From an uncultured Pseudobdellovibrionaceae bacterium (lineage in GTDB: Bacteria > Bdellovibrionota > FAC87 > UBA2466), in NCBI GenBank assembly GCA_964653655.1, contig CAZZHG010000005.1, positions 2,631-66,630 of the forward strand: a stretch of 64,000 bases of DNA, in the 5' to 3' direction. Below are positions 199-49,297 of the stretch, one piece after another. Below the pieces are notes generated by a model, which did not search any database, had not been told where the DNA came from, and worked only from the letters and a program-made list of their open reading frames with translations. Made by a program: the position numbers and the translations under genes. The first letter of the stretch is position 1, and each line of letters starts with the position of its first letter.

Positions 199-3100
199 AT
201 GCGCCTCGCCCGACTCTTTCTCTCTCTAATGATGTCAGTCGCGCCGCTTTCCGCGGACGAAGCGCACGATTCCGCGGCGACCGACGCCGGCTCGACCGAG
301 ATTACGACGGCCTATCCTTACGATCTCCAGCAGTGCCGCTTTCTGAAACGCGACAAGGGTTACTACTTTTTGGAGAAGGATTGGCACTTCCGCCAGACAG
401 GGCTCGATCTGTTTCGCAAGCATCCGCTCGTGAAGCGGGCGGATTACAGCAAGATTCAGCTGGGAATACTCGACACCCCGATTCGGGCGTCGGAAAACCC
501 GAAGGCCGGAAAACGGGTGAAGGCAGCTTCGAACGCCACCGCCGACGACCAGGACACCTTCCATGGAACTCACGTCGCGGGCATCGCCGCTTCGAAAACG
601 GTCGGCGTAAATCCGCGTTTGCCGCTAATTTCTCATCCGCTCGATTTTGAATGGACGATCTTCTCTCCGAGCATCGTAAACGCCTTGATCGCCGCCGGTA
701 AGGATCCCAAGACAAGAGTGGTTAACCTTTCCATCCACGCGCTCGAACACCCGCTCATCAAAGAGCAGGTGCTGGAGCTGACGAAGAAAGGCGTTTGGGT
801 CGTCTACGCCGCGGGAAACAACGGCGAAGTAAACGTCGGAGACAGCGCGCTTCTCAGAGAGCTGTCGCAGGTTCCCGAGCTCTTCTCCATCGGCGCGCTC
901 AACTACTTCGGAACCCCCGCATCATTCAGTAATCACGGCTCGAGCGTCGATTTCTACGCGCCGGGCGAGAGGATTCAGTCTCTTAACGCCGACTACGTTC
1001 CCGGAGAGAAAAAATCCAAAGCGAAGGCGGTGGCGGACGGAACGAGCATGGCGGCGCCTTACGCTTCGGCCGTACTTGCCACCATGCGGGCGATCGAGCC
1101 CTCTCTCACCGCGGAAGAAGCCTTGGAGCTCATCAAGGAGACGGCGATTCTCAGAGGCACGAAGGAAGTCGTGTCTCAGATTAACCCGTACCTCATCGTT
1201 TCCTATCTGGAGGCAATCCGTCTCGCCCGCCTGAAGCAGGAATGCAAGAAGCTGGTCTCCTGTTTTCCCGCGGCGAAGCGCGCCATTCAGGAGAAGGCGG
1301 AAGCTCTAGCCACGGCCCTCAAATCGCCGGAAAACAACAACTGCGACGAATGGGAGAAATTCCAAAATCAGCTTCGCCAAGGCTACTTCCTTACTCGCGG
1401 AAGAGATCCCCGTTTCAGCGGACCGCTCGTTCGCCTCTCCCAAAATGCCCCCCGGGGAAAAGCTGCGGAATCCGTTCTGTACACTTCGGGCGTCGCTCAG
1501 GAGCGGGCGCTCCCGGAGTTCATGGCCGATCACGGCGGCCTACTCGCAAAGGAAGAGGGAGAAGCCTCGAAAGCTTTCTTCGACGGCCGGCCGGACAAGC
1601 TGACCAAGGATGAGCTGGAGGTATCGTTCTCCAATCTCGACGCCATCTGGAAACGTTGTGAGAACTTCTTCTTCGTCCAAACCGACAATGGATTCTGCCA
1701 CGAGATGTTCCACGTCATGCCGAAGTCGTTGAAGCTCGCCTTGGCGAAAAGACTCGTCGATGCCAAGAAGCCGCTTTCGTCGATAAACCTGCTTCGAACC
1801 AACTTCCGGCTCTACGAGGACCCGGCGTCGCTACCCCTGCACAATGCGCTAGTGCCGCTCGCCATCGAGGGAATGGAGAAAAAGGTCCTCACTTCGACCG
1901 AAGCCGAGCACATGCTCGAAGAACTTCCGGAGCTTGCCGAGCAGGCCAGAAAGCAGGTGCTCCCCCTCCTGGAATCCTGCCTGAAAAGCCCCATCGCCGA
2001 GGAGCACAAGTACTGCCGCCGGTACATTGCCCGGGCCAAACTCTATCTGACCGCCGACTCCACGGCGGCGGACGACGAGAATGCCGCCAAGGAAATCGCC
2101 AAGGAATACGACATTGCCCTTCCCTACGCCGCTCTTCGAGTTCAAATCGAACGCGCCAGGGCCGGATTTTTCGACGAAGGAAAGATGGCGAACGTGTTGC
2201 TACGGCAACTCGCCGAGTGGAAGGAAATCGACGCGCCCTACACGAAGAAAGAGGAGAACCACGAGTTCGGAGCGCGCAAGGAGCTCTTCAACGACTGGCT
2301 GGAAGTGGCGAAGAGCCCCTTTTACGGCAAGCTAGTGGGCCAGATTCTCGCCAACCCGGCGAACCTGAAAGTCCTGGACCAGTTGCTTCACGGCAAAACG
2401 GCATTCCCCGATTCGGCGTGGGAAGGTTTCTTCCCGCTCGCCCAGCTGGAGCCGAAGGACCGCAAAGCCCTGCTGGAGGGGATCGCCGAACACTGGACCC
2501 TCAACGATTCAACGAGGGCGAAGCGCTACTTCACCCTGCTACAAGCGAACTCGGATCTACCGGAGGCGGCAAGCGTCCTCGAAGGTCTCAAGAAGAAGGA
2601 TCAGCCTACTCCCTTTTGGAAGGCGGCTCGGCGAAGTTACCTGCAACATGCCGCCGAAACGGCGACCGGTCCGACACCCGCTCTCGCGCAGCTTCTGGAT
2701 GAAACGCCGAAGAGCGAGCATTGGCTGACCCTGGCGTACCTCGACAAGGATTCGGCCGCCAAGGACCCCGAGTTCCTGAAACGTCTGGCGAAGATCTCTG
2801 AAGGAGCTCCCGCCGATTCCCTGCTCGCCACGGAGCTACTCGAGTGGATGAGCGTAAGCCTTCTGGGACAGCCCAAGGTCGAGACCAGCAACGCCATCGC
2901 GCCCATTCTGATTCCTAAGCTCGCCGAACTTTTTCGGGCGAGGGGACGATGGAACGAGAGCGGCGCACTCATTCCGGGCATCGGAACGAGTCTAAATCGG
3001 CTGTCCGAACGCCGGCCCCATCGATTCGCCCAATCGATTTTCCAGTTCGAAAAAATGCTCGCGGACGAAAAGTGGCTGACGGCGGACGACACACCAGAGG

Positions 3101-3552
3101 CGGATGACGAGCGGAAACTGGAGTCCATCTATCGGCGAAAAGATCTGTTTCTGGCGTTGAACACACTGACCAGCTCCGTCCAGGGCGACGCCTATCTGCA
3201 AAGCCACCCGAAAATGCTCGAATGGATGGTGAAGACGGCAACCGATCCCGATACGGACGAGAAGCTGGAGAATGCGGCACTCAATCCGACGCTGACATTC
3301 GCGTTGAAAGACAAAATCCCCGAAAAGTTGGGACCGGCGACCCGGACTCCCAACTGGCTCCTCGAAGTCACCTGGCGGCAACCCAAAGCTACTCCCAAGA
3401 TAGTTCAACTTTACAAGGAGAGCCGCCGCCCCGAACTTCTGCAATCTCTTCAACAGGCCCTCCTGCTGTTTCCCGAAAGACTTAGTTACGACGTGAAAAG
3501 GGAAATCGAAGGGCTTCCCGTTAGCGATCCGCCGATCGGAGGGGGCCCATGA
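199..3552 (+). CDS. Secreted subtilisin-like serine peptidase (S8 family) with a roughly 750-aa C-terminal extension of unknown function.
   Basis: Signal peptide MRLARLFLSLMMSVAPLSA. The S8 catalytic triad motifs are present in order: D in LGILDTPIR, H in HGTHVAGIAAS, S in GTSMAAPYASAVLA. The long helical C-terminal region matches no family I recognise. Confidence 0.8.
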   Translation: MRLARLFLSLMMSVAPLSADEAHDSAATDAGSTEITTAYPYDLQQCRFLKRDKGYYFLEKDWHFRQTGLDLFRKHPLVKRADYSKIQLGILDTPIRASENPKAGKRVKAASNATADDQDTFHGTHVAGIAASKTVGVNPRLPLISHPLDFEWTIFSPSIVNALIAAGKDPKTRVVNLSIHALEHPLIKEQVLELTKKGVWVVYAAGNNGEVNVGDSALLRELSQVPELFSIGALNYFGTPASFSNHGSSVDFYAPGERIQSLNADYVPGEKKSKAKAVADGTSMAAPYASAVLATMRAIEPSLTAEEALELIKETAILRGTKEVVSQINPYLIVSYLEAIRLARLKQECKKLVSCFPAAKRAIQEKAEALATALKSPENNNCDEWEKFQNQLRQGYFLTRGRDPRFSGPLVRLSQNAPRGKAAESVLYTSGVAQERALPEFMADHGGLLAKEEGEASKAFFDGRPDKLTKDELEVSFSNLDAIWKRCENFFFVQTDNGFCHEMFHVMPKSLKLALAKRLVDAKKPLSSINLLRTNFRLYEDPASLPLHNALVPLAIEGMEKKVLTSTEAEHMLEELPELAEQARKQVLPLLESCLKSPIAEEHKYCRRYIARAKLYLTADSTAADDENAAKEIAKEYDIALPYAALRVQIERARAGFFDEGKMANVLLRQLAEWKEIDAPYTKKEENHEFGARKELFNDWLEVAKSPFYGKLVGQILANPANLKVLDQLLHGKTAFPDSAWEGFFPLAQLEPKDRKALLEGIAEHWTLNDSTRAKRYFTLLQANSDLPEAASVLEGLKKKDQPTPFWKAARRSYLQHAAETATGPTPALAQLLDETPKSEHWLTLAYLDKDSAAKDPEFLKRLAKISEGAPADSLLATELLEWMSVSLLGQPKVETSNAIAPILIPKLAELFRARGRWNESGALIPGIGTSLNRLSERRPHRFAQSIFQFEKMLADEKWLTADDTPEADDERKLESIYRRKDLFLALNTLTSSVQGDAYLQSHPKMLEWMVKTATDPDTDEKLENAALNPTLTFALKDKIPEKLGPATRTPNWLLEVTWRQPKATPKIVQLYKESRRPELLQSLQQALLLFPERLSYDVKREIEGLPVSDPPIGGGP

Positions 3553-6672: not shown

Positions 6673-8655
6673 TCAACGGGAACCGCGCGGATTGGAGCGG
6701 CGTTCGGCGAGCGCGGCCCGGCCCATGAAGGCGAACAGCGTCTGAATGAGCTGATTGTTACGGCGGCTGCCCAGGTAATTTCCAATCAGTCCGAAGGTGA
6801 TGAGCAGACAGGTAAGCGTCGAAAGCACCTTCGCCCCTGAGTAGTCGTCCATCCAGTGGGCGAACAGGTGCAGCAGCAAAGCCCCGAGCAGCGGAACATA
6901 GCTCGTCAACCGGTTATAGAGGCGAGTCGTCTGCGCGACCATGCCCATCTCGATACGAGCTTGCGCCTGGACGTCCGACTCCTGTTTCCACAGCATGGGA
7001 TACAAGACCCGCACGCAGATGAACTGGATGAAGAGGCTCGAGTACCCGAGCGCCACGAGCCAGGCGAACAGGAACGAAACCATGAAATGCGCGAACACCG
7101 GGACCGCAAGCGCGCCCGAGTTCAGGTGGATGAAGAGCGGAAAGAGAACGCTCGAGGGCACCCAGCCTATCGTCGTAACGAGAGCGACCACCGCCGGAAG
7201 GCGAAGCACTCTCTTTCTCAAGAGCGCCTGCTTTTCCAAGGAGAGATCCGTTCGCTTCACGTACGGCAGAATTCCCCTGAGCGCCCAAACCCAGATGCCG
7301 AGACAAACCGCGTAAACGACCGGGTTGTAGACCACCATGAGCGATTTGAAATACGCCTGTTGCACCGACGACAATCGGCTCACAATCTCCAGCTGGTTGT
7401 ATAGGATGTTCACGGCGCTCGCCATTATCTGGGGCACGAGGCCGTAGAGAACGAGTCCGGTAAGAGGACTGCGAAAGCACACCGCCGCGAACCAGTTTCT
7501 GGGCGGCAGCTCCTTGTCGATGCGATAGCGCTCCAAAGCTCCCTTCAGGGCTTTCGCGAACGCACCGGCATCGGCAAATCTCTTCTCGGGATCCTTCTCC
7601 AGCGCCTTATCCAAAACGGTTTTCCAGGGCGCCTCGTCCCGGCAGGGGGGATCCCCGGCGAGGGCCAACCATTCCTTCAATACAATGGCGAGCGAGTAGA
7701 CGTCGGCGCGGCGATCGAGCTTTTTAATCGCGGCCGCCCGGTCTTCGGCGACAAACATCGCTTCCTGCTCGGGCGCCATGTATGCCTTCGTTCCGCCGAT
7801 TTGCCCGGAAGTACCGGCCACGTCTTCGAGCGAAAGAGACACATTGAAATCGCTGAGGAGAAACCGGCCGTAGAGATTGAGCAGGATGTTGGCCGGTTTG
7901 ACGTCGAGGTGAAGCACTCCCTGCTGATGGGCATACTGCAAAGTGTCCGCGAGCCGCGCTCCCGTCCACATCACCATCTCGAAGTAGTCGAGCTTCGCGA
8001 GCATCTCCCGAAACTGGAGACTCGACGGATGAAAGGGCACTTGATCCAGAATCTGCCCGTCGAGAATCTCGAGCACCGCCGCACCCGAGAGCTTTGATTT
8101 CGGAAACGCCCGAAGCTTTGTGAGAATCGTTTCGAGCGTCGCCCCGGGGATGTACTGCATGCACATGAAACGCAGGTTCCGGGCGGAGTCCACCGTGTCC
8201 GAGAACACTTTCACGATGTGATCGTGTTCCAGGGGCGCCATGAGGCGCGCCTCGCGGCCGGAGTTGCGGGACACTTTCAGAGCGACTTCCCGGCCGAGAG
8301 AGATTTGCCGGGCGAGATAGACATGGGCGATGCCGCCCCGGCCGAGACTACGCACGATCTCGAAGTCGCCGACGACGTCGCCCGTGGAGAACTCGGGAAG
8401 GCCTCCCTCGTCGAGCGCGATTCGTTCCAGCAGTTTCGGTCCGACGGGATTGGCGAGAAAAGTCCCCGAGCGCTCGTGGGACTCCGCGAGAGATTTCACT
8501 TCCTCGCTGAGGCGCGCGTCTTCGTGGCCGAGGGCCTCGAAGTACTCCGCCCTCGCCTCTTTACTCAAGGCGAGCGCGCGCTCGAGGCATTCGGCGACCC
8601 GATCCTGAAAGTCGGTGGCGACTTCAGTCTTTAGTTTGTTCTGTGCTGAGCTCAC
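6673..8655 (-). CDS. Membrane-anchored Ser/Thr protein kinase (Hanks-type), with a roughly 90-aa N-terminal extension and a C-terminal polytopic membrane domain.
   Basis: Kinase motifs are present: GxGxxG-like RSLGRGGIAHVY, the catalytic loop HLDVKPANILL, and the activation segment GTKAYMAPE. The C-terminal roughly 250 aa contains multiple hydrophobic helices. The start codon lies 32 bp inside the 3' end of the ECF sigma gene. Confidence 0.85.
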   Translation of the reverse strand: MSSAQNKLKTEVATDFQDRVAECLERALALSKEARAEYFEALGHEDARLSEEVKSLAESHERSGTFLANPVGPKLLERIALDEGGLPEFSTGDVVGDFEIVRSLGRGGIAHVYLARQISLGREVALKVSRNSGREARLMAPLEHDHIVKVFSDTVDSARNLRFMCMQYIPGATLETILTKLRAFPKSKLSGAAVLEILDGQILDQVPFHPSSLQFREMLAKLDYFEMVMWTGARLADTLQYAHQQGVLHLDVKPANILLNLYGRFLLSDFNVSLSLEDVAGTSGQIGGTKAYMAPEQEAMFVAEDRAAAIKKLDRRADVYSLAIVLKEWLALAGDPPCRDEAPWKTVLDKALEKDPEKRFADAGAFAKALKGALERYRIDKELPPRNWFAAVCFRSPLTGLVLYGLVPQIMASAVNILYNQLEIVSRLSSVQQAYFKSLMVVYNPVVYAVCLGIWVWALRGILPYVKRTDLSLEKQALLRKRVLRLPAVVALVTTIGWVPSSVLFPLFIHLNSGALAVPVFAHFMVSFLFAWLVALGYSSLFIQFICVRVLYPMLWKQESDVQAQARIEMGMVAQTTRLYNRLTSYVPLLGALLLHLFAHWMDDYSGAKVLSTLTCLLITFGLIGNYLGSRRNNQLIQTLFAFMGRAALAERRSNPRGSR

Positions 8656-13186: not shown

Positions 13187-13897
13187 ATGAAGTTTGGCTT
13201 CGCTGTATTGCTATTAGCTGCGTCGTGTTTTGCCTCGGACATTCCGAAGTCCGAGTTGAGCAACATGTACACCGGTACGTGGCGGCTACCGTCTCAGTTC
13301 ACGGATGCCAGGCTCGTGAAGTTGCTGAACCTCTTCAATGCGAAGGTCTACGGAAAAGGTTTTCGTTATATCGGTGAGGCGGGTGATTTCTTTCACGGAC
13401 ACATCCTGGTGGAAGGCATCGGCAAAGGTCCGGATAAGATCCTGCGGCCGAGAGCCATCCTGTATCACACGCAGGAGGAGGCCTATAAGGCCCACTGGGA
13501 GCCGACTCCTGCCCTGACGAAGTACGACTATCTCGACGTCACCACGCGCAACTGGATTCAGTGGCTAAGTGACGATCCCGCTCAGGACGGCGTCGATATT
13601 CGGAACGCTCGTGAGTATGTGGATGCGAAGAAGAAGGACCCATCGGTGTTCTTTGGGGACCATCCGGCTCCGGTGTTCAAGGAGCATTACACGATTCATG
13701 GGAGCAAGCTCGACGACTCGAAGCTTGGCTTCAATCTCGATGGTGAATCGGAGTTCGAGTTCTACGCCGACTGCAACACTTCTCCCGAGAACGAGTACGA
13801 CCACCGCCATGGGCCGTATGACGTAGTCGTGCCGGGCCAGGGTACTGTGTGCCTCAAGTTCTCGACGGCTTTGGCTGGATATTTCGAGCGCTTTTAA
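13187..13897 (+). CDS. Secreted hypothetical protein, probably co-transcribed with the upstream caspase-like gene.
   Basis: Signal peptide MKFGFAVLLLAASCFA. The gap to the upstream gene is 12 bp. Confidence 0.6.
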   Translation: MKFGFAVLLLAASCFASDIPKSELSNMYTGTWRLPSQFTDARLVKLLNLFNAKVYGKGFRYIGEAGDFFHGHILVEGIGKGPDKILRPRAILYHTQEEAYKAHWEPTPALTKYDYLDVTTRNWIQWLSDDPAQDGVDIRNAREYVDAKKKDPSVFFGDHPAPVFKEHYTIHGSKLDDSKLGFNLDGESEFEFYADCNTSPENEYDHRHGPYDVVVPGQGTVCLKFSTALAGYFERF

Positions 13898-13926
13898 AAG
13901 GAAAAATTTGCGGGGATAAACATCGG

Positions 13927-13961
13927 AAAGCCGAAGGGGCAGTGCCCCTTCGGCTTTTTCC
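13927..13961. terminator. Bidirectional rho-independent terminator.
   Basis: AAAG-CCGAAGGGG-CAGTG-CCCCTTCGG-CTTTTTCC: a perfect 9-10 bp GC-rich stem with a 5-nt loop, flanked by an A-run and a T-run. It lies between convergent genes. Confidence 0.75.
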
Positions 13962-13983
13962 GTTGCTCAGGCAGCGTTAGTCA

Positions 13984-14169
13984 TTACAGGAGCGGGTCGT
14001 TGTTGCTTCTCGTTGGGACGTCTAGGCGCCCAGGATTTTGCGCTTCGCGGTCCGTTTCGATGTCGGAGACACTGCTGTCTCTCTTGCCGGCTCCTTGGCC
14101 GATTTCGGGTTTAGGTTCTGGAACCTTCCCGCTCATCGGCTTTTTTTGGTCTTTTTTTTCGCCCATCAT
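13984..14169 (-). CDS. Small hydrophilic protein (61 aa), hypothetical.
   Basis: A strong RBS, GAAAGGAGG, is followed by ATGATG. The product (MMGEKKDQKKPMSGKVPEPKPE...) is charged and probably disordered. The gene ends at the bidirectional terminator. Confidence 0.45.
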   Translation of the reverse strand: MMGEKKDQKKPMSGKVPEPKPEIGQGAGKRDSSVSDIETDREAQNPGRLDVPTRSNNDPLL

Positions 14170-14355
14170 GGCCTCCTTTCGCTTACTACGTGTTGGTTAC
14201 ACAGGGCCTATAGTGCATGGTGCGTTCCAACTTTCCGTGCGTGCAATTGGCGGCCTGGAGCGGGCGCCTGCGGCGACATGTCTCAATTCGGCAGCGACGA
14301 GCTGGGCCGCTTGGGTTACTTTCCTGAGGAAAGTGAACCAGGGGGTGCATTCGCC

Positions 14356-14652
14356 ATGAGAAAGTCGGCTTGGATATTCGTGCTCGCTGCTTTAGCCGAG
14401 GCCGTCTACTTTTTCTTGGAATACCGGAGCCTCGGTTTCCCGGATGGCCACCTGACTTCGCTCGATCGCATTCGCCAGATCATGTACCCAATCTTCATCG
14501 TGCTGAGCTTGATGTATTGCGTGCACGTTTACCTGATTCAGCAGCACCGCGGATTCTTTCGGATGTTGTTCTGGCTGCTATTCCTGAACGCGCTCTTCTT
14601 CGGCTGGAATCATTATGCGGGGATGTATTTCGAGAATGGGACGGGTGGGTGA
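14356..14652 (+). CDS. Small integral membrane protein (about 98 aa), hypothetical.
   Basis: The internal Met of the listed ORF. Three hydrophobic helices: IFVLAALAEAVYFFL, IMYPIFIVLSLMYCVHVYLI and MLFWLLFLNALFFGW. Confidence 0.5.
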   Translation: MRKSAWIFVLAALAEAVYFFLEYRSLGFPDGHLTSLDRIRQIMYPIFIVLSLMYCVHVYLIQQHRGFFRMLFWLLFLNALFFGWNHYAGMYFENGTGG

Positions 14653-14807
14653 GATTTCCTTTCCCTGAACGCCCACCAGACCTCCCCCAAATAATATAAC
14701 TATTTCAGTTATGTATCGCCTGTTGCTTCCCAAGCGAAAACCCCTGACCCAAGTTGATCAAATTGCCGCATCGTGTTAGTCGTTTGGAACACGGTTTGGG
14801 GGGAGAC

Positions 14808-15080
14808 ATGGGAAAAAAATCTAAGAAGCTCGCGTATTGGCTTGTCGCCGTTTTAGTTACGCCTATGGCGAGGGCGTTTGATATTCCGACACAGTTCCAA
14901 ATCCGGCCAAAGAGAGGTCCTTTCAGCCAAGACAATTGCCATCATTGTCAGTGTGCGCGCCCTGATCGGTATCAAACGCAAAGCTTTGAGTTCCGAGCGG
15001 GAGCTCCGCTGATTCGATCAGGAAACTGGTCCGAGTCGAATGAATCTAAGAAGAAGGGCTTCATCAAAGAAGAGAAATAA
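14808..15080 (+). CDS. Secreted small Cys/His-containing peptide (candidate precursor or signalling peptide).
   Basis: A GGGGGGAGA RBS precedes an ATG at 14808. The Sec signal MGKKSKKLAYWLVAVLVTPMARA/FD has an AxA cleavage site. The roughly 65-aa mature part contains DNCHHCQC. It is the first gene of the low-G+C island. Confidence 0.5.
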   Translation: MGKKSKKLAYWLVAVLVTPMARAFDIPTQFQIRPKRGPFSQDNCHHCQCARPDRYQTQSFEFRAGAPLIRSGNWSESNESKKKGFIKEEK

Positions 15081-15085
15081 TCGGA

Positions 15086-16588
15086 ATGAAGATCCAAAGA
15101 ACGAGGAGATCGATTCTCTTTGCAACGATTGGATCTGTTGTAGTGGGACTCTCAGTGAGTAGTCTGCGAGAAAAACCAATTCAGGAAAAAAGACTGCGAG
15201 CGATCTATCCGATCGGCATGCTCAGGCGAGACGAACGTCTCTTCGACCCCACGAATCTATGGTCAGTTTATCACTACTACCTACAAGAAAATCTCGCCAG
15301 TTGCCTAGTGATCGATTCGACTAAAACCACCTCAGGTTATGAACCAAATCTAGCGACGTCTTGGGAACAAATGAGTCCGACCCAATGGCGCTTCCATATT
15401 GGAAAAGAATTGCGTTGGTCAGATGGTTCGGAGCTTTCTGGCAAACACCTAGAGGAATACTTTCTGGCCCTCTCCCATCGAAACTCGAGACATCTAGTGG
15501 CGCTTAAGTCGCTCGTGACCGCTCAATGGGACGAAGATGCGAGAACTCTAGAATTAGCTTTTTCAAGGCCGACATCACAAACTTTGTTGCACGAGCTTTC
15601 TCTTTCCGATGCCGCTATTCTTCACCCTACGAATGTCGATAGTTCCTGGTCCATCACGTCGGGACGATACTCCGTAAGTCATTTTGATGTCGAAAAGCAG
15701 ACTCTCGAACTGCGGGTAAACACCTATCATCCGAAGTACGAGACAAATTCACCAAACGCCGTGGAGCTATTCCAACCGAAGGAAACCAATTGGAGCCTCG
15801 CGAAAGAAAACGCCGACCTCTGGCTAGTGCCAACCCCTTCATTCTCAGAAGAATTTCGACGACGAGTTACAAGTGCCCCAGCTAGGATAGAAGGCCCCCC
15901 CACAGTAATCTACTATTTCGAGTTCAATCTTAACCACCGGTTGGGAAAATCTACAGAAGCCCGAGTCGAATTTGCTTCAGCGATTCACGAGTTCTTCGAC
16001 AAAGCTGTTCCAAAAATGCCGGAAGCGACTCCGGACCGCCAATTCGCTGCACCCGGCTACCCATCGAGACTTCAAAACTCTGCAGTACAAGAAATCGAAC
16101 CGAAAGCACCTATTTCCATTCTGAGTGGAGAGACGATATCGATATCGATGTACTACTTCGGCGAGGAATACACGTGGCTTTCCACTGAATTTGCCTCCTT
16201 CCTAAGAAATAGAGGAGTAAACGCGACACTCTCCTACAATCGCTATAAGAAAAATGAGCCGCAAGATTGGTTTGCACGTGCTTCAATGTTTAGTGGAAAC
16301 CAGAGAGATTCTGTAGGGTCGTGGAGTTTCCTTCTCTCAAATCCGGACATCGATGTCGGGAGAAAATACCCTGATCTAACCGCCGATCTTAAGAAGGCCT
16401 CGGAAACGTCAGTCGCTTCAGAGAGAGAAAGCATTCTTCAGAGAATTCACTCCCGATTCATTGAACGTGCTCTAGTTGTGCCCTTCCTTCTTGAACGACG
16501 TTACGCAATACACTCTGAAAGGATCTCCCTAGAGCATTGGAACGAATTTGATCTGCGTTCACGTTTCTATGACATTACATGGAAATGA
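15086..16588 (+). CDS. Periplasmic solute-binding protein, family 5 (peptide/nickel-type SBP), Tat-exported.
   Basis: N-terminal TRRSILF Tat-like motif followed by a hydrophobic segment. The segment LATSWEQMSPTQWRFHIGKELRWSDGSELSGKHLEEYF matches the conserved SBP_bac_5 core (L.ESWE....T..F.LRKGV.F.DG..F.A.DV). Length 500 aa. Confidence 0.65.
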   Translation: MKIQRTRRSILFATIGSVVVGLSVSSLREKPIQEKRLRAIYPIGMLRRDERLFDPTNLWSVYHYYLQENLASCLVIDSTKTTSGYEPNLATSWEQMSPTQWRFHIGKELRWSDGSELSGKHLEEYFLALSHRNSRHLVALKSLVTAQWDEDARTLELAFSRPTSQTLLHELSLSDAAILHPTNVDSSWSITSGRYSVSHFDVEKQTLELRVNTYHPKYETNSPNAVELFQPKETNWSLAKENADLWLVPTPSFSEEFRRRVTSAPARIEGPPTVIYYFEFNLNHRLGKSTEARVEFASAIHEFFDKAVPKMPEATPDRQFAAPGYPSRLQNSAVQEIEPKAPISILSGETISISMYYFGEEYTWLSTEFASFLRNRGVNATLSYNRYKKNEPQDWFARASMFSGNQRDSVGSWSFLLSNPDIDVGRKYPDLTADLKKASETSVASERESILQRIHSRFIERALVVPFLLERRYAIHSERISLEHWNEFDLRSRFYDITWK

Positions 16589-16598
16589 AAGTGCCGCC

Positions 16599-17429
16599 AT
16601 GAAGACTTTCACAACCAGGTACGTTGCAACCTATGGCCACCTTTCCATCGGCAGCAAATGTACTCTGCAGCTAGACACCGGGGGTGCGGCAATCGGTTAT
16701 GGAGTTGGAACGACTCTCAGAACTGCGTCCAGAAGAGCCTTCTCTGAAGCTTGGGAAAGACACGTCATGAGTAACATGGCGTGTTTTGATCAGTCGATTA
16801 CCTCATCGAACGGATTCGCTGCGCATTGGTCGAAGGAAACGGCCCTAAGAAACAGTCTAGAAGAGTTGGTTGAACGCCGGATGGTGCTGCGAGCGTGGTC
16901 AACGGGTAGAGGATGGAACAGATCTGGTACGCTCGATTTGTGTGCCCGAGCGATTGTTTGGAAGGCCGAAGCCCAACACTGGAGAATTAACTGGTATCAG
17001 ATTCAAGTACCCGCCCAAAATCACCGCGTTCTCGTCCTGTTGGCCAGACACAAGACTCTTGGCGCATACTTCGATTCCGCCTCGAACGCACCCGGCTCCG
17101 CGCGAAAGCTCGCGCAAGGATTAGATCTATATCTGAACCGTATCGAGCGTTCCCCTTCTTTAGCGGAGCTTCCCGACTTTGCCACACCTGCCTCTCACCT
17201 GGCCTTCTATCGCAATCCCAGCAATCTTCAGGCCTTTGATTTCCTCGAAAACACATCTTCATGTGAAACACTCCCCGATGAGAGAACGAAATCACCCCCA
17301 CAGCAGAGCATCGTAAGCAACTCTCCTGGAATGCCGTATGTCGCCCGTTCGTGGAATAATGACTGGCCCCAACTGAGTTGGGGCGCGAAGAGCGGAGGAG
17401 CGAACTCGTGGCCTCACCCCCTGGCATAG
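16599..17429 (+). CDS. YcaO-superfamily protein, unusually short (about 277 aa).
   Basis: GYGVGTTLRTASRRAFSEAWERH matches the YcaO ATP-binding signature G(K)GxTxxxAxxSAxxEAxER. The start at MKTF lies immediately after the SBP stop. The alternative listed start at 16548 overlaps the SBP gene. Confidence 0.6.
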   Translation: MKTFTTRYVATYGHLSIGSKCTLQLDTGGAAIGYGVGTTLRTASRRAFSEAWERHVMSNMACFDQSITSSNGFAAHWSKETALRNSLEELVERRMVLRAWSTGRGWNRSGTLDLCARAIVWKAEAQHWRINWYQIQVPAQNHRVLVLLARHKTLGAYFDSASNAPGSARKLAQGLDLYLNRIERSPSLAELPDFATPASHLAFYRNPSNLQAFDFLENTSSCETLPDERTKSPPQQSIVSNSPGMPYVARSWNNDWPQLSWGAKSGGANSWPHPLA

Positions 17430-18655
17430 GTCTCTACAAATCCCGGCAGGTCTGGGCGTGGACCACATCTACGCTACTAGTTTTGTCGCTGATAGGGGTA
17501 CTACTCTGGACACAACACCTAAGACATTCATTCGGACGAATCCTTGAATCAGAGACGAAGCAGGCCATAGAAGCGACGCGGGAAGCAGTTCAGCACGGCA
17601 ACTTTCGGGCGTTTGTCGAATTGCTGGGTACAAGATTTTCCGACCCATACGTGAAAGTAGGATCCGCTTTCGGAAATCTCGAGATGGGCAGTCCAAGTGT
17701 TCTGCCAATCTGTAGTATTCAATCGCTAGAGAGTACATCGATCAAGGTTTGCGGGCCTTCCCAAATACCTTGGAGTCAGGCTTCTATCATTCTATCTATA
17801 TTCCTCCTGCTTTCCTTCGGTGCCCGCTTAGTTCTGACGACTATCGAAGAAAAAGCCATCGCGTCAATGACCTCGACTTTTGCACACCTTGAGCTTCCAA
17901 ATCCCCTCCTAAGCGGGATGACCCCGTTGTTAGCCGGCGTGAGTGACTTGAGACGGTCGGTAGTAGACCTTCAGGAACGTGATCGACGGCTATCGAAAAA
18001 GGCTCAGCTCACAGAAACAGCCCAAAAGGTCGCCCACGATATTCGCTCCCCTCTGTCGGCGCTCAAGGTTTTGGCCTCGTCACCAGAGGAACTCAACAAG
18101 GAAGAAGGAAGGAATCTCTTCCGGATGGCTACCGCCAGACTTGTCGGAATTGTAGACGACTTTCGAGAAAAATCTGGAGACGACCTGGAGATCGTTGACT
18201 TGGTTCCTCTTCTTTCAAGTGGGGTTCAAGAAAAGCTCCTGGAACGAAGTAACCGGCGAGATGTCGCTCTAACGTTGAATATCGAAGCAAAGGAACTCAA
18301 CTGTCGCGTTGAATCCAAGCTCTTTCAACGAGTGTTGTCTAACCTACTCAACAACTCGTTCGAAGCGATACATAGCCGAGGTACCATTCAGGTCACCGCA
18401 GCTGTTCTAAAAGATTCAAAGATTAGGATCGAAATAGTTGATGATGGCGTAGGCATACCAGCCACTATTTTAAACATATTGCGCAAGGAACAGATCTCTT
18501 ACGGAAAAGTGAAGGGCTCAGGATTGGGGTTCAATTCCGCTAGAGAATGGATTCTGTGCTGGGGCGGAAGCATTTCGATCTCTTCCACAGAAAACGTCGG
18601 AACTAGCGTTAGAATCGAACTCCCTAGTAGCGACCTGCAAAGAGCGGGATTCTGA
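17378..18655 (+). CDS. Sensor histidine kinase with two N-terminal TM helices and a roughly 110-aa periplasmic loop.
   Basis: HisKA H-box AHDIRSPLSALKVL. HATPase_c N-box LSNLLNNSFEAI and G-boxes DDGVGIP and GSGLGF. The TM helices are LLVLSLIGVLLW and IILSIFLLLSFGARLVL. The start codon is uncertain and the listed start overlaps the YcaO gene's 3' end. Confidence 0.8.
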   Translation: MGREERRSELVASPPGIGLYKSRQVWAWTTSTLLVLSLIGVLLWTQHLRHSFGRILESETKQAIEATREAVQHGNFRAFVELLGTRFSDPYVKVGSAFGNLEMGSPSVLPICSIQSLESTSIKVCGPSQIPWSQASIILSIFLLLSFGARLVLTTIEEKAIASMTSTFAHLELPNPLLSGMTPLLAGVSDLRRSVVDLQERDRRLSKKAQLTETAQKVAHDIRSPLSALKVLASSPEELNKEEGRNLFRMATARLVGIVDDFREKSGDDLEIVDLVPLLSSGVQEKLLERSNRRDVALTLNIEAKELNCRVESKLFQRVLSNLLNNSFEAIHSRGTIQVTAAVLKDSKIRIEIVDDGVGIPATILNILRKEQISYGKVKGSGLGFNSAREWILCWGGSISISSTENVGTSVRIELPSSDLQRAGF

Positions 18656-18696
18656 CCGGTCCCACCAAATCGTCTATCGAGGTAGATGTTCAGTTC

Positions 18697-18743
18697 AGAA
18701 AAAAAGAGAATGGGCGGCCCCCGTCACCGGAGAGCCGCCCATC
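18697..18743 (-). terminator. Rho-independent terminator for the minus-strand gene 18769..19581.
   Basis: On the minus strand, the hairpin GGGCGGC-N15-GCCGCCC at 18711-18742 is followed by TCTCTTTTTTT. Confidence 0.55.
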
Positions 18744-18768
18744 ATAGACTTATACCAACTTCCGTCGA

Positions 18769-19581
18769 TTAAAACGGGTTGCCCTGGCAAGTGCCCGAAG
18801 AGAGCAGCTTGCGATCGCCATTGCGGGTGATCACATAGACCGCGAACTGAGCGCTACGGCCCACCGCGGACTTCGAGCTCGTGAAGTTCTGCTGGCGCTG
18901 GCGAGGATCGAGAGTGCCACGCACCACATCCGACTGGTTCGTCTGCGGATTGTTGAAATGCACTTCGTAACCCGTCACGCCCGAACCGTTCACCGAGCAT
19001 TCGACATGGCTCTGCTTCTGGAAGAAGTTGCCGCCGAACTTGCCGTTACACTGGCCCGTGATCGCTCCGCCACCATGGTGGTTCTGAGCATCGTTCTGGA
19101 TCGCCCGTTCAAAAGCTCTCCAAGCCTGCTCAACCTCACGAATGGCGAACTGCACGCCGAAACCACCGCGGTTCAAGTTGTCGATAGCGCGGCTGAGATT
19201 CGCGTACTCGTTGTTCTCGAGGCTGCGAAGCGTACGGCCGAAACGATCGTGACCATCCCGATCCTGCAGCTCACGGATGACCTGACGACGAAGAGCGCGC
19301 TCGAGCGTGCTCGCCGCATCGGCAACCTGGTCGAGCTGAGCGACGGCGTTGTTCATGCCCTTCTCGCTGAAGTCATCGGCCTGATCGAAGGCCTGGTCGT
19401 CGAGCTTCTGAATCGCATCGATGAGATTCGAGGCGGCCTGAAAAAGAACGCCCGTCTGATTGGGACGGTGGAAGTGGCTACCGGGACCCCGGCGCCAACC
19501 GTTGTTGTTGTTGTGATTCGGACCATCCGCGACGGCAATCGCCGTCGCAGAAATGAGAAACAGAGCAATGAACTTGGACAT
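18769..19581 (-). CDS. Secreted hypothetical protein (Asn/Gln/Gly-rich).
   Basis: Start at the internal Met with a GGAG RBS. MSKFIALFLISATAIAVADG is a signal peptide. The ORF's upstream extension was rejected. Confidence 0.6.
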   Translation of the reverse strand: MSKFIALFLISATAIAVADGPNHNNNNGWRRGPGSHFHRPNQTGVLFQAASNLIDAIQKLDDQAFDQADDFSEKGMNNAVAQLDQVADAASTLERALRRQVIRELQDRDGHDRFGRTLRSLENNEYANLSRAIDNLNRGGFGVQFAIREVEQAWRAFERAIQNDAQNHHGGGAITGQCNGKFGGNFFQKQSHVECSVNGSGVTGYEVHFNNPQTNQSDVVRGTLDPRQRQQNFTSSKSAVGRSAQFAVYVITRNGDRKLLSSGTCQGNPF

Positions 19582-24683: not shown

Positions 24684-25919
24684 TTACTTCACGCCGTAGC
24701 GCACGCTGCACGTGCCCGAACCACCGGGGCCGGTTACGGTGCCCGTCGCCGTGAACACCCCGGACTCCACCGGGGTAATCGTCTTCGTGCCGCCCAGCGC
24801 AGGCATCGACTGTCCGATGAGTAGCGCGCTGCTCACCTGTCCCGACGTTTTCATCGTGAGCACCAACGACTCACCGAGACGAATGAAGCTCGGATTGGCG
24901 GCGAGGGCGCACAGCGGCGACTCCACCACCGGGCCGGTGATGTTGACGTAGATCAGCGTCGCGTCGGCGCCGAGCGGGCTTTTCGCGGTCAAAGAAACCC
25001 GGAAGCTTCCCGTCACGGTCTTCGGCGGCGCGATCGTAAGCGTCATGCCGTTGATCTCCATCCACTCGGGAGCGCTCGGATCGAGGTAGAACTTGAGGCC
25101 CGCGATGTTGGGCATGTCGAGCAGCATCGGAAGCTTCTGCTCGTAAACTTCGCCCGACTCCACGCTGTAAGAGTAGAGGCTCTTCTTGAAGTGCGGCTCT
25201 CCCGGCGTGACGCTCTCGCAGGTCGAAGTGACGCCGCAGATGTCCACGTTCTGCGCCTTCGCCGTATCCTTCAGAAACGACTGCACCGACGGCAAAGCGA
25301 GATGGAGGCTGTAGTTGGTGTCCTGGATGTTGCCCTTGCTGTTGATGCCGACCACGCGGAACTTGCCGGCTTCCTTCGCCATCGTCGGCCCGCCGGAGTC
25401 TCCGAAGCACAGAGCGCCGCCGTTCACACGCTTCGAGACGAAATCGCTCTGGGAGAAGGACAGCACGTCCGACTCACCCATGCGAAGCACGCCGTCGTTG
25501 CCGCCGCCGCCGCCCGGAGTCGTGCAGCCGAAGCCGAGCAGAAAGACTCTGTCGCCGACATTCACGGAGCCGCCGATGGAGGCCGGCACCAGTCCTGAAA
25601 TCGCCTGGGGCGTGATGATGAGCCCGACATCCTTGTCCTGGGACGGGTAGTCGGGATGACGGAACCCTTTGCCGACGTAAGTGCGGCCGTCGACCGAGAA
25701 CTCGGCCGAGCCGCCATCCTTCACGCAGTGGGCGGCGAGGATCAAGGCGTTCGGACCGACCACGGTCGCCGTGCAGCTCGCGCCGTCGGCCCTCACCTGA
25801 ATCACTTCGCCGAACATGCCCTTCGGCACTTCGACGCCGTTGATGATGCGCTCGCCGCTCGCTTGAGCGGTCGACGCGAGTATCGTCGATAGAATCACGG
25901 CTGTTTTGAAAAGCTTCAT
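24684..25919 (-). CDS. Secreted trypsin-like serine peptidase (S1 family) with a C-terminal extension.
   Basis: Start at the internal Met with an AGGAGA RBS. Signal peptide MKLFKTAVILSTILASTAQA. Motifs IINGVEV, His in LILAAHC and Ser in CFGDSGGP are present. The C-terminal roughly 150 aa is an extra domain. Confidence 0.8.
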   Translation of the reverse strand: MKLFKTAVILSTILASTAQASGERIINGVEVPKGMFGEVIQVRADGASCTATVVGPNALILAAHCVKDGGSAEFSVDGRTYVGKGFRHPDYPSQDKDVGLIITPQAISGLVPASIGGSVNVGDRVFLLGFGCTTPGGGGGNDGVLRMGESDVLSFSQSDFVSKRVNGGALCFGDSGGPTMAKEAGKFRVVGINSKGNIQDTNYSLHLALPSVQSFLKDTAKAQNVDICGVTSTCESVTPGEPHFKKSLYSYSVESGEVYEQKLPMLLDMPNIAGLKFYLDPSAPEWMEINGMTLTIAPPKTVTGSFRVSLTAKSPLGADATLIYVNITGPVVESPLCALAANPSFIRLGESLVLTMKTSGQVSSALLIGQSMPALGGTKTITPVESGVFTATGTVTGPGGSGTCSVRYGVK

Positions 25920-26111
25920 TTGGTTTCTCCTTCGTTCGAGTTGGTTTTCAATCTCTTCATGATCAAATCTGACACGAAAAATTCTTCCGCCGGAAAATGG
26001 GTCCAAGTTGCCCGGAACAAAAGTTAAGGACTCGACTTCTGGTGACCGAAACCGCGGCGGGTTCATCGCCCTCGCCGCCGCCGTGGCATACTGATGCTTT
26101 AAAGGAAGAAG

Positions 26112-27101
26112 ATGATCGCAATCGCGCTGAAAGTAATGCTGCTCACCGCAATGGCTCAGGCGCCCGCGGTTCCGCCCTCCGCCGACGACCCTTACCGTCC
26201 GTCCGGTGAGGACGCCCTGATGAAAACCGGCCGCGACAAGGGAGAGCCCATCGACTTGGACTGGCGCCGCACGAGTGTGCAGCTCGACGCCGCCCAGGCG
26301 AAACAACATTTCGCGGATTTCGACGCCTCGAAGGAGCTCGCCCTCGCCAACGTGAAGCACTTCGATGAGTGGTACGTGGCCCGCCTCCCTTTAGAGGGGC
26401 TCGAGGGCGTGAAGATGACCCGCTACCGCATTCTTAAGCAGCTTCCGGTAAGCCACGGCGGCCTGAGGTTCACCATGAGGAAGGGATTCAAGGTCCGCCT
26501 CGTTCCTCAAGTGAACGGATCGAAGAGCCCGCGGCTTGAGTTCGATTCGCTGGGTTTCGGCATTTACGCCGTCGGAAAGAAGGGCCGCAAGTTCGGCATG
26601 GAAAATAGCGCCAACAAAGACCTGGTGAGCACTTACATGTTCTATACGCCGGCGGAGCTGATGGAGCGCTTCAGGCAGGACACCAAGAACAACGACATGA
26701 AGGAGATTCCCCTCAATCAGATGGAGGCGGCCGACACCCAGGCCCTGCTTCAGCACCTGGCCAAGAGCGCGACCGAGACGAAATACGAAGAGGTCTATGG
26801 GATGTTCCTCAATAACTGCGTGCACCGGCTGCTCGCCCTTATAAAGGAGAGCCGCCGTCCCTCTGGCAAGCCCGCGCGCAATGCCCTTATAAGGAAGACC
26901 GTGAAGACCGCCATCAATCCGGTGAGCGGGGTGCTCGATAGCGCCCGCGATGCTTCGGGCGATTTGCTTCCGACGGGGCTTACGAACGGGTTCTCACCCA
27001 TAATCACGCACGAGCTTTACCGGATCGGGGTGACCTCCTACTTCGCCGCCTGGTCCGACGTGCTGAAGGATCCAGAGCTCAAGTCCCTCAAGCAGAAGTG
27101 A
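26112..27101 (+). CDS. Secreted hypothetical protein.
   Basis: Signal peptide MIAIALKVMLLTAMAQA. Total length 329 aa with no family I recognise. Confidence 0.55.
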   Translation: MIAIALKVMLLTAMAQAPAVPPSADDPYRPSGEDALMKTGRDKGEPIDLDWRRTSVQLDAAQAKQHFADFDASKELALANVKHFDEWYVARLPLEGLEGVKMTRYRILKQLPVSHGGLRFTMRKGFKVRLVPQVNGSKSPRLEFDSLGFGIYAVGKKGRKFGMENSANKDLVSTYMFYTPAELMERFRQDTKNNDMKEIPLNQMEAADTQALLQHLAKSATETKYEEVYGMFLNNCVHRLLALIKESRRPSGKPARNALIRKTVKTAINPVSGVLDSARDASGDLLPTGLTNGFSPIITHELYRIGVTSYFAAWSDVLKDPELKSLKQK

Positions 27102-48589: not shown

Positions 48590-49297
48590 ATGATCGTGGA
48601 AGCCCTTATAAAAGACATCCGCCCGACCCAGATGGAAATAGGCACGGCCCACGTCACCTACTCCGTGGGGAAAGTACGGGAGCGAGGCCATCTTTCCCGC
48701 GCCCTTCCCGGCGTGATCGGCCCGGACGGCGACTACTACATTAGCGATGGGCACCACTGGGCGAGTGCCGCTCAAGCGATGGGCTTTAAAAGCCTTCGCA
48801 TCGAGGTACGCGCCGATTTTTCGGGTAAGGGCTGGGAGGAGTTCGCGAAATATCTGCACGAGCACGGCGTGGGCTATTTCACCCCGGAAGTTCGCAACCG
48901 CTTCGGGCTTACCGAGCTGTATCGGACGCAGTTACCAAAGAGCCTGAGCGAAATGCGGGACAATCCGGGCCGATCGATAGTCGGAATCGCCTTGGAAGAG
49001 CTGCCCCTCGTGGCGGAAGAAGCACTGAGGGATTACATCGAGTTCTCGCTCGCCGAGGAGTTCGAAGCGAACTTTCGAAAGCAGGGAGTCGACTTCGAAA
49101 AGCCCATCACCGACGAAGCCATCGAAAAGGCAAAGCGAGTGATTGCCACGGATGAGGATATCTTGGCCTACCTGGGAAAGAATCTGCGACCCGACCTCGA
49201 TCAGAAGAAAGCGGCCGAGGCCACCTTCGGGCCCATCAACCGTTATCGATCGGCTCTGGGTCTCGGGCGGATGACCCTCACCGCCACTCCGGAATAG
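48590..49297 (+). CDS. ParB/sulfiredoxin-like nuclease-domain protein.
   Basis: N-terminal IKDIRPTQ and DYYISDGHHW match the ParB/Srx DGHHR-type motif with Arg changed to Trp. Total length 235 aa. Confidence 0.5.
   Translation: MIVEALIKDIRPTQMEIGTAHVTYSVGKVRERGHLSRALPGVIGPDGDYYISDGHHWASAAQAMGFKSLRIEVRADFSGKGWEEFAKYLHEHGVGYFTPEVRNRFGLTELYRTQLPKSLSEMRDNPGRSIVGIALEELPLVAEEALRDYIEFSLAEEFEANFRKQGVDFEKPITDEAIEKAKRVIATDEDILAYLGKNLRPDLDQKKAAEATFGPINRYRSALGLGRMTLTATPE

Follow-up and report, generated by a model that had tools for sequence, protein, structure and literature searches.

A small Asn-Cys peptide gene heads a cassette for a mini-YcaO protein, an orphan binding protein, and a sensor kinase

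What is the role of a 90-codon open reading frame (ORF) that directly precedes the genes for a solute-binding protein (SBP) and a short YcaO protein in an uncultured Pseudobdellovibrionaceae bacterium? The ORF occupies positions 14808 to 15080 on the plus strand of the DNA analyzed here, which is a stretch of 64,000 nucleotides (GenBank assembly GCA_964653655.1, contig CAZZHG010000005.1, positions 2,631 to 66,630) that we call the window. The original prediction, made from the sequence alone, held that its product is a secreted precursor or signaling peptide that could be the ligand of the SBP, a metal-binding peptide, or a substrate of the YcaO enzyme. We find that the ORF is a genuine gene that is conserved in position. 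It is the first of four genes, spanning about 3.9 kb, that encode the peptide, an SBP of the SBP5 family, a mini-YcaO protein, and a sensor histidine kinase. There is strong evidence that these genes constitute a real, conserved, and so far undescribed module, and searches of the literature on YcaO proteins with Bdellovibrio, histidine kinases, SBPs, or quorum sensing returned no description of this cassette. Among the roles proposed, the genomic context appears to favor a YcaO substrate that would also serve as the ligand of the SBP and kinase.

A conserved gene for a small, probably secreted peptide

The peptide gene starts with ATG at 14808, ends with TAA at 15078-15080, and is preceded on the plus strand by a G-rich Shine-Dalgarno sequence (GGGGGGAG, 14798-14805), in agreement with the strong ribosome-binding site described in the original prediction. 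Its product (MGKKSKKLAYWLVAVLVTPMARAFDIPTQFQIRPKRGPFSQDNCHHCQCARPDRYQTQSFEFRAGAPLIRSGNWSESNESKKKGFIKEEK) consists of a Lys-rich N-terminus, a hydrophobic core, an ARA-F junction at residue 23, a CHHCQC motif (residues 44-49, positions 14937-14954), and a Lys-rich tail. Signal peptides were judged by rules, not by trained-model prediction, with a Sec (type I) signal defined by a positive n-region, a hydrophobic h-region of 7-15 or more residues, and small residues at positions -3 and -1. By these rules, residues 1-23 (14808-14876, plus strand; MGKKSKKLAYWLVAVLVTPMARA, followed by F) constitute a Sec-type signal peptide with an n-region charge of +4, an uncharged h-region of 14 residues (8-21), and an A-x-A site after residue 23. 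The proposed Sec signal with an AxA site was thus reproduced, and the predicted mature product is 67 aa in length rather than the 65 aa first suggested. The SBP5 gene begins 5 nt past the peptide stop codon, at 15086, and Pfam matches downstream (PF00496 and PF02624) confirm that the ORF sits directly upstream of SBP5 and short YcaO genes.

Given its small size, the ORF might be suspected to be a spurious, untranslated frame in the leader of the SBP gene. Such a suspicion could draw on a word-indexed homologue search with the window peptide that yielded no match, on Pfam and NCBIfam scans that matched none of seven family peptides even at E 10 (weak lipoprotein-signal matches aside), and on the absence of a gene record for the exact product in the contig index. 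However, an exhaustive phmmer search against 1.84 billion representatives recovered one true relative, P0007, which is a 90-aa protein with 45% identity over residues 3-53 (E 4.5e-10). On its contig (L013), the peptide gene is followed after a 6-nt gap by a gene for an SBP5 protein that is 49% identical to that of the window and then by the first part of a YcaO gene, at which point the contig breaks off with the cassette order preserved. Over the first 53 alignable codons, the identities between the two genes at the three codon positions are 0.62, 0.74, and 0.36, and the proportions of nonsynonymous (pN) and synonymous (pS) differences are 0.33 and 0.78, respectively. Because the synonymous sites are saturated, dN/dS is not computable, and the codon-position identities were used instead. 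The low pN relative to the saturated pS, together with the codon-position pattern, indicates a translated sequence under purifying selection, and the translation presupposed by the original prediction is therefore upheld by a coding-type substitution pattern. A Shine-Dalgarno sequence and an equivalent ORF with an invariant Asn-Cys pair in 12 other loci also speak against a spurious frame, which we regard as effectively refuted.

The peptide family and its cassette

Similar small ORFs upstream of SBP5 or YcaO homologues, which the original prediction had named as a check, are indeed present, and the lack of such ORFs at syntenic loci that would have spoken against the prediction was not observed. 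In 12 other loci, an ORF of 31-90 aa lies directly upstream of SBP5, mini-YcaO, and histidine kinase genes, and in most of the resulting 13 loci (window included) this ORF abuts or overlaps the SBP gene. A Shine-Dalgarno motif precedes the peptide ATG in all loci except L007, which is decaying, and L012, whose upstream DNA is cut. The N-terminus resembles a signal peptide in every copy except that of L007, and each of the 11 peptides analyzed carries a K/R n-region and a hydrophobic region of 13-25 aa. When these 11 peptides are aligned with MAFFT (alignment A5), only two columns are invariant, corresponding to Asn43 and Cys44 of the window peptide (14934-14939, plus strand), and the same pair is present in the partial L012 and shortened L007 peptides. 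We propose that this pair is the site of modification or recognition. A second Cys follows 1-8 residues after the first in 11 of the 13 peptides and is absent in two loci.

Most family members end 4-17 residues beyond the cysteine of the Asn-Cys pair, and the Cys-containing cores of the family include FSQDNCHHCQCARP and the short type NCGGSI. The C-terminal regions read SQDNCHHCQCARP… in the window, RDNCEHCQCARP… in L013, ARNCLSCTDCLAVDHHRDQKS in L023, ARNCERCDA in L018, DSNCGGSI in L017, TDNCGEGSCTKGT in L020, LDNCIHGGSCTAK in L015, ADNCGIGGNECNKEMRKA in L001, GLNCTGGGGTSCYAR in L006, LVNCGPTDCTAIKKND in L008, AANCLPGGQ in L011, GENCGCVGGNTQAK in L012, and DHNCIDGGHCLSK in L007. Pairwise comparison of the window peptide and P0007 reveals a common core, RPK(R/K)xPFxxDNCxHCQCARP (RPKRGPFSQDNCHHCQCARP in the window, residues 33-52, 14904-14963, plus strand), and tails of 37-38 residues that cannot be aligned. 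The window tail comprises 38 aa (14964-15077, plus strand) and ends with the Lys-rich segment SKKKGFIKEEK. Both CHHCQC and this segment are present as originally described, but neither is a key feature of the family, since only the closest relative has a comparable motif (CEHCQC) and the Lys-rich tail is unique to the window. Likewise, His residues, a third Cys, and a long tail are limited to the window/L013 lineage and partly L023. That only Asn-Cys is invariant weakens metal binding as a family-wide function. These peptides form a new small-protein family without a Pfam or NCBIfam entry, which standard annotation is apt to overlook, and this gene-level result stands regardless of what the peptides do.

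Two further features of the peptides were observed. Most members carry a semi-conserved A-[FL]-x-[LIFM]-[PV] element at the boundary of the h-region (A5; AFDIP at residues 23-27 in the window), which could be a recognition or processing element that overlaps the signal peptide. In L001 (5889-6077), the hydrophobic region is followed by a lipobox-like L-T-S-C sequence, so that this product might not be a free peptide but a lipoprotein.

A search with the YcaO protein returned 89 clusters (at 90% identity) that form a coherent family with lengths of 224-352 aa and whose source labels are Bdellovibrionales or Bdellovibrionaceae, with 'Elusimicrobiota' appearing twice. A scan of GTDB species representatives yielded nine loci, all labeled as metagenome-assembled genomes (MAGs) of Bdellovibrionota. 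The order peptide, SBP5, mini-YcaO, and histidine kinase recurs in L001, L006, L008, L015, L017, L018/19, L020, L023-25, and the ENA contig of P0003. Flanking genes are different in every locus, and the four genes therefore represent the unit. In L008, L018, L020, and L023, the SBP and YcaO genes overlap by 20 nt and the YcaO and kinase genes by 22 nt, and the window exhibits the same two overlaps if its YcaO gene starts at ATG 16569 and its kinase gene at GTG 17408. Conserved overlaps of this kind imply translational coupling, and the start codons of the YcaO and kinase genes have probably been mis-set by simple ORF calling.

The module is probably also mobile. A low-GC block in the window (14400-18800; GC 0.47-0.55 versus 0.58-0.60 outside) coincides with the four genes and nothing else, which suggests that the cassette was acquired as a unit. 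Elsewhere, the cassette adjoins a phage-type integrase gene (L015, 138-1040), a site-specific recombinase gene (L008, 1045-2928), transposase genes (L017, 9302-11860), or TraG/TraU-like type IV secretion system genes (L023, 1-923). Horizontal mobility is suggested by these neighbors together with the low-GC block. Repeat analysis of the window revealed no island-bounding repeats, and the window contains no tRNA, paralogous cassette, or second copy of the peptide.

Two MAGs, RBG_16_40_8 (L006 and L007) and GFS_7509 (L011 and L012), each carry two diverged cassettes whose SBPs are 51-57% identical and whose peptide cores differ. These pairs resemble pherotype-style diversification and fit the existence of specific ligand-receptor-enzyme sets. 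The joint decay of components in two loci fits such sets as well. In L007, the peptide (326-421) lacks a signal sequence and the SBP gene (449-1934) is frameshifted, and in L021 (6001-6675), the YcaO protein is shortened to 224 aa, the kinase gene is divergently oriented, and there is no adjacent peptide. One candidate peptide in L021, ending in RNCMV, was weak and was treated as a chance match.

The partner proteins and a proposed signaling circuit

The mini-YcaO gene (16569-17429, plus strand; the NCBI product P0001 starts at 16599 and has 276 aa, with ATG 16569 as an alternative start) encodes a protein that matches PF02624 (E 1.8e-7) and has the YcaO fold, and its model fits McbD best. Residues E50/E53/R54 (EAWER) and E89/E92/R93 (ELxER) are invariant in 13 of 13 YcaO sequences, and the second ExxER motif aligns to that of TruD/LynD. 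The family also has an invariant C-terminal NxWPHPL(A/G) sequence. A PxPxP C-terminus is associated with azoline-forming YcaO enzymes (PMC12338566). Formation of an azoline requires a Cys, Ser, or Thr in the precursor, for which the family peptides offer the invariant Cys after Asn and, in most cases, another Cys, although modification of these residues is a prediction from sequence. A tight and exclusive linkage between a Cys peptide and a YcaO gene is the standard signature of a YcaO-type peptide that is made by ribosomes and modified after translation (RiPP), and it marks the peptide as a candidate YcaO substrate.

The SBP gene (15086-16588, plus strand) encodes an orphan OppA/MppA-like protein of the SBP5 family (PF00496, E 5.7e-12, 45.9 bits versus a cut-off of 32.4) with an RR-containing N-terminal hydrophobic anchor or signal. 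Profile matches to solved structures include MppA, OppA, AapF, and NikA (E 3e-16 to 1.5e-8), with MppA and OppA ranked first, and there are weak NCBIfam matches to nickel-binding NikA/Opp5A. The protein is homologous in all related loci, and its alignment (A4) has 47 invariant columns, none of which is Cys. No locus carries genes for an OppBCDF-type ATP-binding cassette (ABC) importer beside the SBP gene, and all loci encode this orphan protein together with a membrane kinase. The nearest solved relatives of the SBP are peptide binders and importer genes are absent, both of which accord with a putative role for the SBP as a peptide sensor. There is also precedent for an SBP5 protein that handles a YcaO product, as one participates in the uptake of the YcaO-made peptide phazolicin (PMC10128002).

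The kinase gene (17408-18655, plus strand) likely starts at GTG 17408, as indicated by a ribosome-binding site (GGAGGAG, 17394-17400) and the N-terminus of the family, whereas the ORF list gives TTG 17378. Pfam and NCBIfam matches (HATPase_c, E 8e-17) and an alignment of 10 homologues (A3) define a sensor histidine kinase with a first transmembrane segment, a periplasmic loop of about 100 aa, a second transmembrane segment, a dimerization and histidine phosphotransfer domain, and a catalytic domain. The loop is family-specific and contains invariant residues R77, C112 (17711-17713), and C125 (17750-17752), as numbered from 17378. Either a structural disulfide between the two cysteines or a site of thiol exchange with the Cys peptide is conceivable. 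L017 (6765-9014) and L018 (7041-9614) encode hybrid kinases with receiver domains, a separate response regulator gene lies directly downstream in L018, and an NtrC-type sigma-54 activator gene is upstream in L023 (2066-3664).

From these components, one can envision the following circuit. The 90-aa precursor would be made in the cytoplasm, where the mini-YcaO protein might use ATP to activate the Asn43-Cys44 backbone amide. An Asn-derived thiazoline would be the most likely product, given the McbD/LynD-like fold and Pro-containing C-terminus of the enzyme, and no later oxidation would be expected because no dehydrogenase is encoded. The linear peptide would leave via Sec and be cleaved after Ala23, and the SBP, tethered to the membrane, would then capture its Cys-containing core in either the periplasm or the extracellular space. 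A disulfide loop may involve the second Cys. The loaded SBP, or perhaps the peptide itself, would act on the small periplasmic loop of the kinase, which would pass the signal to a response regulator whose gene usually lies outside the cassette. We infer that the YcaO enzyme acts on this peptide by chemistry of this kind, that the peptide is the ligand of the SBP and kinase, and that the circuit may be autoinducing. For the whole chain of Asn-Cys activation, Sec export, SBP capture, and kinase signaling, our confidence falls just short of even, and it is offered as a tentative model.

The original prediction cautioned that Sec export would normally separate the peptide from a cytoplasmic YcaO enzyme. 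This topological concern is sensible, but the bufferins provide a counterexample. Bufferin precursors carry Sec signals, and heterocyclization of their Cys residues (to thiooxazole) in the cytoplasm precedes export through the general Sec machinery, with no dedicated transporter (PMC11626156).

Several points weigh against the circuit that we favor. The Pfam YcaO match spans only positions 113-231 of the 325-position model, and by eye we identified two of the three canonical ATP/Mg-binding motifs that Dunbar 2014, as cited in PMC8120280, gives for the superfamily. The C-terminus of the enzyme is PHPLA (PxPxx, with the last Pro replaced) and not a full PxPxP. The cassette encodes no RiPP recognition element (RRE), E1-like/Ocin-ThiF partner, TfuA, or dehydrogenase. 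More specifically, an E1-like or Ocin-ThiF partner with an RRE is absent from the window cassette and every related locus, TfuA has no Pfam match among the cassette and flanking genes scanned, and the 276-aa YcaO protein is too short to contain a fused E1-like/RRE partner. This leaves no evident means by which the enzyme would recognize its substrate. McrA is a folded protein that is modified by a YcaO enzyme. Such enzymes also modify other folded proteins such as uL16 (PMC13063428), and the substrate here could consequently be the SBP or the kinase. In most loci, the window among them, no response regulator gene is linked. No clean A-x-A site is present in several family peptides, which, judging by their sequences, may stay in the membrane as signal anchors. 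Furthermore, the 38-aa tail that follows the core in the window and L013 is absent from other members, and the circuit does not account for it. In L005, where the order is kinase, SBP, and YcaO, the YcaO gene is intact and no adjacent NC-peptide was found. Finally, every family member comes from a MAG or metagenome.

Alternative functions and known systems

Perhaps the most serious alternative is that the peptide regulates the kinase in unmodified form, either from the periplasm or anchored in the membrane, and that the YcaO enzyme modifies the SBP, the kinase, or a housekeeping protein. MgrB, a small membrane peptide that regulates the sensor kinase PhoQ, is the model for this arrangement. 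The peptide would either insert with its N-terminus inside and C-terminus outside or be cleaved, and its Cys motif would contact the kinase loop, possibly through thiol-disulfide chemistry with C112/C125. The signal-anchor appearance of peptides that lack a clear signal-peptidase site, the two invariant cysteines of the loop, the capacity of YcaO enzymes to modify folded proteins, and the absence of an encoded leader-binding partner are all consistent with such a role. Like MgrB, the peptides are short, have an N-terminal hydrophobic segment and periplasmic cysteines, and are encoded with a sensor kinase. However, they resemble neither MgrB nor any Pfam or NCBIfam family in sequence, the cassettes always include an SBP and a YcaO protein, and several peptides, including those of the window, L013, and L008, have a classical A-x-A site. 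An unmodified regulator would also leave the linkage of the peptide to a cytoplasmic YcaO enzyme in every intact cassette unexplained, and the SBP has no invariant Cys or Ser/Thr-rich site that stands out as a target. We consider this function unlikely, if still a real contender. Somewhat less probable again is a periplasmic metal-binding or buffering peptide of the bufferin or chalkophore type, whose Cys (and here also His) residues would act as ligands of Cu, Zn, or Ni. Binding might be aided by a thiazoline or thioamide from the YcaO enzyme, a NikA/MbnE-like SBP would recognize the metal-peptide complex, and the kinase would report metal status. Such a peptide would make sense of CHHCQC in the window, CEHCQC in L013, CLSCTDC plus HH in L023, the NikA and Opp5A matches of the SBP, and the oxidative-stress genes beside the cassette in L018 and L020, and bufferins are themselves Sec-exported, heterocyclized-Cys, copper-binding peptides. 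Yet Asn-Cys is the only invariant feature, His is absent and Cys occurs just once in the peptides of L017 (NCGGSI) and L011 (NCLPGGQ), and the strongest matches of the SBP are to the peptide binders MppA and OppA and not to NikA. Furthermore, no MNIO, DUF2063, or DUF2282 match was found, and no metal efflux or uptake genes are linked.

We regard as quite improbable a third function, that of a linear azoline- or microcin-type antimicrobial that the YcaO enzyme would modify and the predator would direct at prey or competitors. The SBP and kinase would then serve in autoinduction or in immunity sensing. The resemblance of the enzyme to McbD (the microcin B17 cyclodehydratase), the labeling of the hosts as Bdellovibrionota, which are predators, and the frequent presence of mobile-element genes beside the cassette, as in many bacteriocin loci, would accord with an antimicrobial. 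Against it, there are just one to three modifiable Cys residues and no Ser/Thr/Cys-rich core, and the cassette lacks a dehydrogenase, dedicated exporter, leader protease, and immunity gene. Sec export into the periplasm of the producer itself would also be unusual for a toxin.

How, then, does the circuit that we favor relate to established systems? In the bufferins, BufA1/BufA2 are encoded with the MNIO (DUF692) enzyme BufB and the DUF2063 partner BufC, and the buf1 operon of C. vibrioides includes DoxX and is regulated by nearby SigF/NrsF (PMC11626156). The likeness is confined to the combination of a Sec signal with modification of Cys, which is proposed for the window peptide. Here, the enzyme is a YcaO protein rather than an MNIO/DUF692 protein, it is accompanied by an SBP and a histidine kinase, and the peptide is not of the DUF2282 or BUF_6/12Cys type and has one conserved residue pair. 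Pfam and NCBIfam matches to MNIO (DUF692) or DUF2063 are absent from the window locus. The module likewise differs from linear azole-containing peptide (LAP) and thiazole/oxazole-modified microcin (TOMM) systems, such as microcin B17 (McbA with McbBCD) and the cyanobactins (LynD/TruD). Its YcaO protein has a length of only about 260-330 aa and no E1-like/Ocin-ThiF/RRE partner, there is no flavin mononucleotide-dependent dehydrogenase, dedicated exporter, or immunity gene, and the peptides offer one to three Cys instead of a heterocycle-rich core. In addition, a Sec signal replaces the classical leader, and the enzyme ends in PHPLA rather than PxPxP.

Regarding the sensory half of the module, the LuxP-LuxQ and TorT-TorS pairs each comprise an SBP encoded beside a membrane histidine kinase, with autoinducer-2 and trimethylamine N-oxide as the respective ligands. 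As in those systems, the SBP gene here stands beside a kinase gene with no cognate ABC permease or ATPase genes, an arrangement that suggests that the ligand-loaded SBP signals to the kinase. Unlike those systems, which use other SBP families and small-molecule ligands, the cassette has a peptide-binding SBP5 (cluster C) protein whose gene accompanies those for its presumed peptide ligand and for a peptide-modifying enzyme. Methanobactin, in which MbnA is made with MbnB/C and the SBP5-type protein MbnE is employed, offers another parallel to the proposed circuit, in that a periplasmic binding protein of the SBP5 family accompanies a ribosomal peptide with Cys-derived modifications. However, MbnB/C, a MATE exporter, and a TonB receptor are missing here, and the SBP is paired with a kinase and not an importer. 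Gram-positive bacteria use modified peptide autoinducers, including the autoinducing peptide of AgrD/AgrB/AgrC and nisin with NisK autoinduction. As in those systems, the operon here specifies a ribosomal peptide, a modifying enzyme, and a histidine kinase that would sense the product, and the peptide cores diverge between paralogous cassettes. The present module differs in its diderm hosts, YcaO enzyme, Sec export, interposed SBP, and lack of a linked response regulator in most loci, and no AgrB/AgrD family match (Pfam, NCBIfam) or LanB/C-like protein was found in the cassette.

By analogy, the module might be viewed as most like a hybrid of bufferin-type Sec export, LAP-type YcaO chemistry, and LuxPQ/TorTS-type sensing. 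It belongs to none of these three families, as an MNIO enzyme and an RRE partner are lacking and the SBP is of another class. A bolder proposal is that it represents a new class of peptide signal in diderm predators of the Bdellovibrionota type, based on a partner-less mini-YcaO enzyme, an invariant Asn-Cys pair, Sec export, and an OppA-like SBP with a kinase. The product would be a mobile RiPP autoinducer whose variable residues after Asn-Cys set specificity. We find this proposal conceivable but doubtful. If the proposed circuit is correct, the cassette would reveal a new RiPP architecture in which the smallest class of YcaO protein yet seen acts with no recognition partner on a precursor with a Sec signal. 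It would also reveal a modified-peptide autoinducer that operates via an SBP-kinase pair in Gram-negative-type cells, where, to our knowledge, peptide quorum signals are rare. Signaling in Bdellovibrionota is poorly understood, and the cassette would provide an entry to cell-cell or predator-prey communication in this group.

Regulatory signals were also sought. A scan for sigma-70-type promoters revealed no plus-strand site upstream of the peptide gene, with counts at the level of shuffled sequence, and an Rfam scan of 13800-19200 returned nothing credible. Because L023 has an NtrC-type regulator, sigma-54 elements were sought as well. Good -24/-12 matches upstream of the peptide gene were found only in L017 and L018, and sigma-54 control was rejected as a general feature. 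A GC-rich hairpin of 14 pairs (18709-18743), called on the minus strand in a terminator scan, lies between the kinase stop codon and a convergent gene and is a probable terminator at the end of the operon. A perfect 15-bp hairpin (13927-13957) follows the upstream gene, and the two hairpins likely bracket the region as terminators.

Some neighboring genes deserve mention. Just upstream of the cassette are genes for an Fe/Mn superoxide dismutase in L018 (3092-3703) and for glutathione peroxidase and OsmC in L020 (1866-2351 and 3655-4095), and the presence of oxidative-stress genes beside these two unrelated cassettes may be a coincidence. Elsewhere in the window are genes for a large subtilase (199-3552), a Ser/Thr protein kinase (6673-8655), a trypsin-domain protein (24684-26360), LigD (40247-42319), and a tail-specific protease (49243-51270), along with many other ORFs that have no Pfam match. 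This gene content fits a poorly characterized, protease-rich, and possibly predatory bacterium.

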